Positions 62,631 through 63,488 of a stretch of DNA of 64,000 bases are shown here, piece by piece. A program made the translations under genes and the position numbers. The notes below the pieces were generated by a model. The model did no database searches, was not told the origin of the DNA, and was given only the letters and a program-made list of their open reading frames with translations. This DNA comes from Escherichia coli 042 (GTDB lineage Bacteria > Pseudomonadota > Gammaproteobacteria > Enterobacterales > Enterobacteriaceae): assembly GCF_000027125.1 (NCBI RefSeq), contig NC_017626.1, one strand, 5' to 3'. Numbering within the stretch: position 1 is the first letter of the stretch; every line of letters begins with the position of its first letter.

Positions 62631-62906
62631 ATGACTAAGCTTTATCACCGCATCTCAGCTTTTCTCTCTGGGTGCTGGGCGTTTATCACGTCTATTTCGT
62701 TCGCCATCTTTAGTTTCGGTAGCACAGCATGCTCGCTTAGTCGGGGTCTGTGGCGTGCTATTTCAGCACTAGCGCCGAAATTTTTACCTGAAAAGGTTGT
62801 TTGGCGAATTGTAGAGCGAATGTGTAGTGAGAGCGTTCGCGAGAAGATTAACGTATTTGGACGTCATCCTCGAAATACAGGCGCATTGTGCAGTTCGTTA
62901 CTGTAG
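62631..62906 (+). CDS. Hypothetical small membrane protein after Rz
   Basis: 91-aa ORF with AGGAG RBS and hydrophobic N-terminus; could be spurious. Confidence 0.3.
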   Translation: MTKLYHRISAFLSGCWAFITSISFAIFSFGSTACSLSRGLWRAISALAPKFLPEKVVWRIVERMCSESVREKINVFGRHPRNTGALCSSLL

Positions 62907-63024
62907 TCATTACAAAGCCCATCTTTGGGTTTGGTTTGTAATTTCGCTGCTGCAATAATCACCAGAAATATGGCATTGTTATTGGTGGTCATATGTCATA
63001 CCCATCAATTACAAAGGAGCAGAC

Positions 63025-63276
63025 ATGTCATCTACAAAATTAGTTAAAACTATCCTTTTCCATGGAGATAATAAATATGAAGTTTATGCAACCTCCGAGT
63101 ACGCTGACGTAGATAGAATCATTCATTACAAGTTACGCTCATGTAAAAACACAGATGGTTCAGATGGCAAGTCTGAATCTATATGGGTTGTATATAATCC
63201 TGCTGTTCAACTACCGGATGATCTGAACTACAAAAAAGTTAGCAACATAGCTCCTTATCTTGAAAAGTTACAATAA
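63025..63276 (+). CDS. Hypothetical moron protein (83 aa)
   Basis: AT-rich ORF with AAGGAG RBS 8 nt upstream, followed by a hairpin + T-run terminator; sits where lambda carries bor. Confidence 0.5.
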   Translation: MSSTKLVKTILFHGDNKYEVYATSEYADVDRIIHYKLRSCKNTDGSDGKSESIWVVYNPAVQLPDDLNYKKVSNIAPYLEKLQ

Positions 63277-63295
63277 ACTTCCTTTTCCACATGCT

Positions 63296-63325
63296 AAAAG
63301 CCTCGTATTCGCGGGGCTTTTTATT
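63296..63325 (+). terminator. Rho-independent terminator after the moron ORF
   Basis: aagcctcgtattcgcggggctttttatt: imperfect GC stem followed by a T-run. Confidence 0.5.
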
Positions 63326-63488
63326 GTCATTACAAAAGCCACTCCCTACAGAGTGGCTTTGATAATGGTTTATACCCTACACGGGATAACTTAACTGATA
63401 TCCCTTTTAACGGATAAACGGAGCCAACAATGGCAGAGAATGTCGGCATTATGGCAGTTAAATTTGGATAAATCGGAGATTAGTACAT

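Follow-up and report, generated by a model that had tools for sequence, protein, structure and literature searches.

We analysed a 64,000-nt stretch of Escherichia coli 042 (contig NC_017626.1; hereafter the window) whose 3' end was identified, from the list of open reading frames (ORFs) and from reading of the sequence, as the late region of a lambdoid prophage. The interval studied here runs from the lysis cassette of this prophage to an HK97-type packaging module. It contains two short ORFs, ORF1 and ORF2, which exist in the ORF list as the initial annotation had described them (62631-62906 and 63025-63276), and a repeated motif that marks two members of a family of conserved hairpins. The main interest of the locus lies in this hairpin family, which is real, widespread and specific to one genomic slot, rather than in the two ORFs. 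The features are as follows, with genes taken from the ORF list.

60264-60752: Q-like gene
61378-61701: lambda-type holin gene S
61685-62161: lysozyme gene R
62158-62595, + strand: i-spanin gene Rz, which ends the lysis cassette and is the left anchor of the slot
62351-62542: o-spanin gene Rz1, embedded in Rz
62631-62906, + strand: ORF1, 91 amino acids, spanin-linked conserved gene
62908-62944, + strand: hairpin copy 1, decayed type A, left junction of the ORF2 cassette
62931-62959, + strand: weak candidate promoter of ORF2, read by eye
63025-63276, + strand: ORF2, 83 amino acids, exchangeable cargo gene
63296-63325, + strand: intrinsic terminator of the ORF2 cassette, from the terminator scan
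63328-63367, + strand: hairpin copy 2, intact type B, from covariance model and fold
63368-63439, + strand: leader of the packaging module, from homology comparison
63489-63839, + strand: HNH endonuclease gene, which belongs to the HK97-type packaging module and anchors the slot on the right
after the HNH endonuclease gene: start of the gene of a P27-family small terminase

The repeated motif, GTCATTACAAA(A)GCC, has two copies in the 64 kb, starting at 62906 and 63326, and no others. Copy 1 is GTCATTACAAAGCC (62906-62919), its first G being the final base of the ORF1 stop codon TAG, and copy 2 is GTCATTACAAAAGCC (63326-63340); the position first reported for copy 1 was correct and that of copy 2 (63327) was one base off. 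The 10-mer common to both copies, TCATTACAAA, occurs exactly twice when both strands of the window are considered, against 0.14 expected occurrences, and two copies were reached in 0 of 100 shuffles. The 14-mer with at most two mismatches gave 2 matches against 0.43 expected, and a repeat search paired both copies over 16 nt at 88% identity. Direct reading of the sequence confirmed that the motif appears twice, each time after the end of an ORF and beside a hairpin. Both copies are in fact the 5' arm of an inverted repeat.

The arms of copy 2 (63328-63344 and 63351-63367) are 17 nt long and 88% complementary, and its layout is CATTAC-A-AAAGCCACTC-cctaca-GAGTGGCTTT-GATAATG. It scored 60.9 bits (E = 2e-11) with our covariance model of the hairpin (model R1, run with filters off), and its minimum free energy (MFE) fold of -18.9 kcal/mol has a 5 + 10 bp architecture. 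Copy 1 folds through ATTACAAA/TTTGTAAT and CCCA/TGGG; the 5' arm CATTACAAAGCCCATC has been preserved, and mutations have turned the 3' arm into GGGTTTGGTTTGTAATTT. Copy 1 still folds (-11.7 kcal/mol) and scored 16 bits with the model (E = 0.3, third-best in the 64 kb), compared with 42-63 bits for intact members. No match to model R1 other than copy 2 and the weak copy 1 was found in the whole window. A covariance search of 60700-64000 against Rfam (E ≤ 1) returned three chance-level matches, all far under the gathering score. To describe the pair as a duplicated element, as the initial annotation did, is too simple, since they belong to one family but to two types, the decayed copy 1 to type A and the intact copy 2 to type B, and do not constitute a target-site duplication.

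Among the viral loci that we collected (numbered with the prefix L; L001 is HK140, L281 is phage Huey, and L126 and L232 are the same contig), L133 has the stem in intact form, after a different gene, and shares with the window both the truncated right flank G-TAATTT and the sequence upstream of ORF2. The undecayed stem of L133 therefore indicates that the ORF2 cassette became attached within the right flank of a hairpin of type A. By this comparison the copy 1 hairpin drifted in the E. coli lineage after the cassette had joined, and the canonical form of the hairpin is therefore not essential at that position.

Members of the family are about 40 nt long and consist of a 5-bp outer stem (CAUUA/UAAUG), a 2x2 internal loop (CA/GA), a GC-rich inner stem of 9-10 bp and a loop of 3-6 nt. 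The succession of 5 bp, 2x2 loop and 9-10 bp was recovered in the MFE fold of every member when each sequence was folded singly. In 63 viral loci with homologues of ORF1 (59-100% identity), the stop codon of the homologue is always followed by CATTAC-A, a GC-rich stem-loop and GATAATG, and the sequence of the stem varies by ORF1 clade (AAGCCCATC/GGGTGGGCTT, GAAGCTCTTCA/AGGGGCTTC and GAGCCACTTC/AGGTGGCTC). Two further stem types were obtained from loci anchored on a DUF2560 gene; type E, from DUF2560-anchored loci, presents a compensatory change from A-U to G-C in the outer stem (TATTGC...GACAATG).

Pairing was scored on the structure ....(((((..((((((((((......))))))))))..)))))..... Among 21 distinct elements, 97.8% of the pairs were standard and six pairs had changed on both sides; when the partners were slid by 1-3 columns as a control, only 32-49% of positions were paired. 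A further 80 loci supplied 55 distinct elements, in which 97.2% of positions were paired and 8 of the 15 pairs presented compensatory changes, including the A-U to G-C change of the outer stem. At least six stem types hold 97% pairing. In addition, CATTACA and GATAATG are invariant across ORF1 clades whose synonymous divergence is 0.9-2, which points to selection rather than to recent common descent.

The invariance of the flanks could alternatively be explained if CATTA(T)C and GATAATG were half-sites of a protein that binds duplex DNA, as in an operator or a packaging-related site, with the stem being incidental. Similar GATAA/TTATC half-sites occur four times in the leader just downstream, as this explanation would predict. 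However, the spacer between the flanks measures 23, 24 or 27 bp, which breaks helical phasing, its sequence covaries strongly and the element is strand-asymmetric; we therefore consider a duplex-binding site very improbable. The flanks were also compared with Fur boxes, DnaA boxes and dif, all of which fitted poorly. The GATAAT of the right flank was rejected as a -10 box: type E has GACAAT at this place, compensated by a change in the left arm, and no -35 box lies at a usable distance.

When loci were oriented by their late genes, 131 of the 133 model matches were located on the late-gene sense strand, and the remaining two are the same sites read as near-palindromes. One U.G wobble is retained in 50 of the 55 distinct sequences, and of 18 cases compared, 15 showed better folding of the plus than of the minus strand. 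The element is structured and strand-specific. Together, the strand bias, the wobble and the better folding of the plus strand suggest that the structure matters on the sense strand, and that it therefore acts as RNA or as one strand of DNA. These comparisons indicate that selection maintains the structure of the hairpin on the sense strand of the late transcript. The clear covariation argues that the hairpin has a function of its own, probably in the late mRNA.

The position of the hairpin relative to the preceding gene is also constrained. In a redundant set of 219 hairpins, 111 follow an ORF of at least 40 amino acids, belonging to at least eight unrelated families, and in 101 of these 111 cases, spread over at least five unrelated families, the hairpin starts exactly 1 nt past the stop codon (e.g., 62904-62908 in the window and 2474-2480 in L003). 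TAG, the rarest stop codon of E. coli, is the stop codon in 92 of the cases with 1-nt spacing, across unrelated gene families. This spacing might suggest translational coupling, in which a ribosome stopping 1 nt upstream would melt the 5' arm and free, in the 3' arm, a purine-rich stretch resembling a Shine-Dalgarno sequence, together with the invariant AUG at the base of the hairpin. By eye, the 3' arms indeed read GGGUGGG, GAGUGG, GAGGGG or GAGGUGG, 7-9 nt before this AUG. Yet the ORFs starting from the AUG vary from 7 to 30 codons and indels shift their frame between close relatives, about half of the hairpins are preceded by non-coding DNA, and the AUG is explained by its pairing with the CAU of the 5' arm, including the compensatory change of type E. 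Coupling is improbable in our view. Programmed read-through of the ORF1 TAG was a further candidate, rejected because the length and the frame of the extension differ between hairpin types.

We then considered where the hairpin is found. The whole genome of Sf6 yielded only two R1 matches (37833-37874 and 38495-38542), both between Rz and the small terminase gene TerS, and HK97 yielded two matches upstream of gp74; the Rz-to-cos region of lambda yielded no R1 match. Across HK97, HK140, Sf6 and about 200 viral loci, the element was located only between the spanin and the packaging genes, and it is thus confined to one slot. The element also marks this exchange slot in roughly half of the complete E. 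coli genomes. A scan of viral contigs for the bare 14/15-mer had returned 120 loci, most of them by chance, and these later served as a specificity control: 73 of 80 contigs chosen only for the 14/15-mer presented no hairpin under model R1, and among the seven that did, lambdoid contigs that had already been sampled account for at least three (L007, L010 and L018). We found no description of these hairpins in the literature that we searched, although they may be mentioned in the original genome papers of HK97, HK620 and Sf6.

Homology between phages breaks at the hairpins. Comparison of 61300-64000 with all collected loci (blastn) gave end points at 62912-62930, at 63318, 63326 or 63351, and at 63439. 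In many deposited phages (Sf6, HK544, mEpX1, IME10 and others) the match begins at 63325-63329, and the homology to Sf6, HK544, mEpX1 and others begins exactly at 63326-63329, at copy 2. The hairpins therefore coincide with points of exchange, and the boundary element that had been proposed is a conserved hairpin family located exactly at the homology breakpoints between related phages. The base CATTACA...GATAATG, whole stem types and the leader are shared between phages at 95-100% identity, which suggests that they provide a patch for homologous recombination.

The interval from Rz to the HNH endonuclease (or to TerS) is variable, as had been predicted, with differing contents among related phages. 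From Rz through ORF1 to hairpin A, HK140 and N7 are 97% identical to the window; they then present a 159-bp non-coding piece and a second hairpin, with no ORF2. In other E. coli prophages the place of ORF2 is taken by a Gp49-family gene or a 57-aa gene, in L150 a type-A and a type-C hairpin enclose a 61-aa gene, and L151 represents an empty site in which ORF1 and hairpin A are joined directly to the leader. Six types of filling were seen between intact pairs of hairpins, and the fillings of the slot include ORF2, Gp49-family, 57-aa and 61-aa genes, KilA-N and Rha-like genes, and the 159-bp piece. The latter, a conserved segment, is the commonest filling between two intact hairpins (1850-2008 in L001/HK140, 38703-38853 in the HK97 record, and Sf6). 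No conserved ORF was found in this segment, and it was rejected as a structured small RNA because its fold is not significant (z = -1.5).

Some fillings bear labels that suggest a function. The Gp49-family gene of phage Huey carries an 'anti-CRISPR' label from automated annotation. Two slot occupants of the same phage (L281 686-1186 and 1421-1801) are labelled 'anti-CRISPR protein' by the pipeline, and the occupant of L136 at 1422-2144 encodes a protein of 240 amino acids that looks DUF2829-like by eye. Based on such pipeline labels and by-eye likeness, the slot may collect anti-defence genes.

The coexistence of empty and filled sites raises the question of whether the hairpins are structure-specific recombination sites, similar to integron attC sites or to the hairpin ends of IS200/IS605 elements, at which a recombinase would move promoterless cassettes. 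Integron attC sites have core sites RYYYAAC...GTTRRRY and are used with an integrase and an attI site. Like attC, the element is an imperfect hairpin 3' of each promoterless cassette, with a conserved base, a small unpaired internal loop at its centre and a variable upper stem; it is strand-specific, it preserves structure over sequence, and cassettes are found flanked by differing stem types, such as A and C in L150. In contrast to attC, however, its flanks are CATTAC...GATAATG and not RYYYAAC/GTTRRRY, and the slot holds at most two or three units per phage rather than arrays. The junctions are scattered (62912-62930; 63318, 63326 and 63351), many of them falling shortly outside the hairpin or within it, and at the ORF2 junction the right flank is cut down to G-TAATTT, which resembles ordinary recombination. 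Moreover, no candidate recombinase travels with the slot: the complete annotation of Sf6 presents no integron integrase or attI, and lists only a lambda-type integrase 20 kb away. A dedicated recombination site thus appears quite improbable, a little more so than coupling. The stronger form of this idea, an integron-like phage cassette system with structure- and strand-specific capture of promoterless accessory genes, possibly anti-defence genes, into a fixed slot of the late operon, is a long shot. If true, it would explain the conserved base and variable top, the 1-base spacing from the stop codon, the empty sites and the flanking hairpins of mixed type.

ORF2 is the filling found in the window. 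Its Shine-Dalgarno sequence AAGGAG (63014-63019) lies 5 nt before the ATG, and its terminator consists of an 11-pair stem (63296-63321) followed by the T run TTTTTATT. This terminator is kept with compensatory differences in loop and stem in L135, L136 and L284, and it also occurs without ORF2 in phage Ayreon. GC content is 0.35-0.37 over 62950-63324 (0.35 for the ORF2 gene), whereas S, R and Rz range from 0.47 to 0.57. In HK140, N7 and many E. coli prophages, both flanks are retained (96-97% identity) and other DNA replaces ORF2. The full arrangement was found in 15 of 5426 complete E. coli genomes, and partial matches in 2497. The idea that ORF2 is independently acquired cargo therefore holds: it presents low GC, its own Shine-Dalgarno sequence and terminator, and a patchy distribution among otherwise near-identical phages.

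The ratio of nonsynonymous to synonymous substitution (dN/dS) of ORF2 is about 0.15-0.3 relative to homologues of 63-71% identity, which indicates a real gene. The family is tiny, with five clusters among 5.8 billion proteins and eight representatives among 1.84 billion, and no match was found in 50,697 deposited phage records. An AlphaFold2 model consists of four beta strands and a C-terminal helix (predicted local distance difference test, pLDDT, of 78; only one of five models confident), and fold searches returned no significant match and no family relative. Every ORF2 homologue examined has spanins upstream and a terminase downstream in the same orientation, with lysis and packaging genes that differ widely. 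In L284, a distant homologue is enclosed by two intact hairpins, and the cassette is also found upstream of DUF2560 in a P22-type context (L126, L232), so that it is independent of the HNH module.

The initial annotation had further proposed that the cargo is autonomously expressed, and had suggested looking for a sigma-70 promoter between 62920 and 63020. A consensus scan found no such promoter there (3 sites in 1.8 kb against 2.7 expected). By eye we found one weak candidate, below the threshold of the scan, at 62931-62959 (TTGGTT-N17-(TG)C-AATAAT, extended -10 TGCAATAAT); it is identical in L133 and is not clearly kept in the distant L135 and L136. Autonomous expression is thus unproven. 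A putative sigma-54 promoter upstream of ORF2 (TGGCAT-N5-TTGGT) was rejected, being conserved in neither L135 nor L136. The family occupies the same slot in the direction of the late operon in very different phages, and late co-transcription therefore fits at least as well as moron-style expression in the lysogen. The moron concept originates from the lambdoid phages HK97 and HK022 (PMC3594210). The ORF2 cassette resembles a moron by its patchy presence, atypical GC, own terminator and position inside the late operon, and differs in having no convincing promoter of its own and in being confined to one slot and one orientation across very different phages. ORF2 is probably a late-expressed accessory protein, possibly involved in host takeover or anti-defence, rather than a lysogenic-conversion gene.

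ORF1 presents a different picture. It has a ribosome-binding site AGGAG (62620-62624), a hydrophobic N-terminal half and 40 highly conserved C-terminal residues. It belongs to phrog_34701 (E = 2e-54), of the PHROG category unknown function, and had no match in Pfam, NCBIfam, PADLOC or the PDB; its AlphaFold2 model is all-helical and of low confidence (pLDDT 59). The homology and structure searches called for in the initial annotation thus recovered homologues for both ORFs, but no known family function or significant fold match for either. The ORF1 family comprises 50 protein clusters from Escherichia, Enterobacter and Citrobacter prophages, and PGAP (the Prokaryotic Genome Annotation Pipeline) mostly leaves it unannotated. 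With a dN/dS of 0.1-0.3 and an excess of third-position changes, ORF1 is a real gene under purifying selection. It directly follows Rz/Rz1 in all 63 viral loci, down to 59% identity and even with other types of holin and endolysin. The patchy presence among related phages that characterises morons is therefore not seen for ORF1, and these comparisons place it in the spanin module and not, as had been assumed, in the cargo. A minus-strand ORF of 42 amino acids (62864-62992; annotated by PGAP in strain 135, where the pipeline misses ORF1) was rejected as a gene: it spans the cassette junction, is antisense to the conserved C-terminus of ORF1 and is probably spurious. Overall, the initial observation was confirmed and its interpretation was partly right.

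What the hairpins do must be weighed against a simpler possibility, namely that they are ordinary Rho-independent terminators acting as insulators of morons, whose conservation reflects the shared ancestry of terminator sequences. They lie at the 3' ends of genes in the direction of transcription with a GC-rich stem-loop, as intrinsic terminators do. Type B has an A tract and UUU beside its GC-rich stem, copy 1 contains a weak terminator-like sub-hairpin (62915-62932 in the terminator scan), and one GenBank record, that of phage Ayreon, annotates a 'terminator' exactly at the model match of a copy-2 type element. However, most hairpin types have no U tract: in types C, D and E the next bases are CGAUAAUG or CGACAAUG, and type B is borderline (UUUGAUAAU). 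Copy 2 was not called by the terminator scan and directly follows a canonical terminator in the window. In addition, the compensatory A-U to G-C change in the outer stem and the invariant CA/GA loop are not features of terminators, and a terminator role leaves the outer stem and internal loop unexplained. This explanation is unlikely, but less so than the others that we weighed.

In our view, the best explanation is that the hairpin is a structured 3'-end RNA element of the late transcript that also serves as a shared patch for recombination, and that small accessory genes of lambdoid, HK97-like and P22-like phages have a dedicated slot in the interval from Rz to the packaging genes, where such hairpins delimit them. 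We give this explanation as a whole a probability of about 0.55. The hairpin would act as RNA, as the 3'-end element of the preceding gene in the Q-antiterminated late transcript, and could protect or process the mRNA of that gene. Its GC-rich core would be terminator-like without a proper U tract, and the outer stem and internal loop would form only if transcription passes the core. Recombination between shared hairpins would swap the intervening DNA, or delete it and leave an empty site; ORF2 would be one such exchanged unit.

This logic may follow that of known elements. The sib/tI region of lambda and the intergenic RNase III sites of T7 are interrupted stem-loops that immediately follow a gene, within a transcript that is antiterminated or long and polycistronic. 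In lambda sib, a terminator-like core lies inside a longer helix that is formed only on read-through. By analogy, the extended outer stem of the hairpin might form only on read-through transcripts. The position and the orientation of the hairpin fit this comparison, whereas its interrupted helix is shorter (15 pairs and a 2x2 loop, about 17 stacked positions).

Several observations weigh against our interpretation. Fifteen pairs and a 2x2 loop are short for a classical RNase III site, and function at the RNA level, whether in processing or in stabilisation, is something that we infer. G.T wobbles and strand bias would equally fit a role as single-stranded DNA. The absence of a U tract from types C, D and E indicates that these are not ordinary terminators. 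Different stem types share only about 7 + 7 bases, which is too few for efficient homologous exchange between types. The decayed copy 1 is fixed in all of about 25 loci and 15 genomes with this arrangement, so that an intact hairpin is dispensable there. Finally, the sequences are related by descent, and statistics based on shuffles therefore exaggerate significance; stronger evidence comes from the slid-partner control and from the existence of several independent stem types.

The exchange part of this interpretation recalls the boundary sequences (bsq) of lambdoid phages. The genome papers of HK620 and Sf6 reportedly describe these as short sequences that are conserved between unrelated modules and proposed to guide homologous exchange at gene borders. 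Similarly, the hairpins are short conserved sequences at the junctions of non-homologous segments, and the same types adjoin at least eight unrelated upstream genes. Unlike a homology patch alone, they are structured, covarying and strand-specific. Neither hairpin carries a bsq feature in the Sf6 record, where bsq2-bsq7 are annotated; the nearest, bsq7, lies inside Rz (37312-37359).

Phage genomes are mosaic, but the sequences that serve for the exchange of modules have seldom been defined; the hairpin pinpoints one such slot in HK97, Sf6 and HK140, and it is compact enough to be found with a covariance model. It bears on the questions of whether conserved linkers drive modular exchange and of how accessory genes are controlled individually within an antiterminated operon. 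It also provides a handle to catalogue the small accessory genes between lysis and packaging genes, including the ORF1 family and the rare ORF2 family.

The leader that follows copy 2 (63368-63439) normally precedes the first gene of the packaging module, as judged by comparison across loci. Over 63368-63429 it presents four half-sites of the TTATCC/GGATAA type in alternating orientation (TTATACCC, GGGATAA, ATATCCC and CGGATAAA), which end at the Shine-Dalgarno sequence of the next gene (GGAG, 63420-63423). The half-sites are kept with variable spacers in the diverged phages L150, L173, L179 and L185, and the block precedes differing first packaging genes, either DUF2560 or a 68-aa gene (MSDIYQ...). 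Leader, terminator and hairpin fold together (z = -6.9). The leader may be an operator or a translational leader. Its last bases, ATGGCAGAGA (63430-63439), are the first 10 bases of the DUF2560 gene; P22-like homology stops there and the HNH module begins, which places this recombination junction inside a gene start and not at a hairpin. At 63365-63394, the invariant terminal ATG of the hairpin opens a putative ORF of nine codons (MVYTLHGIT), with equivalents of 7-9 codons in diverged leaders.

The gene order around the slot is the same in an identical locus of E. coli strain 135, where PGAP annotates a holin, a GH24 lysozyme and a 'lysis protein' corresponding to the Rz locus, as well as an HNH endonuclease followed by a P27-family small terminase. 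Further upstream, the region between the Q-like gene and holin gene S (60753-61377) contains a TTGACA that resembles a promoter element and, at about 60800-60850, a strong hairpin with a T run. The approximately 480 bp of GC-rich DNA 3' of this hairpin yielded no convincing ORF and no tRNA; in Stx phages, tRNAs and toxin genes occupy this Q-to-S position. Finally, a 169-aa ORF in the nin region (58946-59455) encodes a putative free-standing homing endonuclease of the NUMOD4/HNH type, based on the resemblance of its N-terminus seen by eye in the translation.

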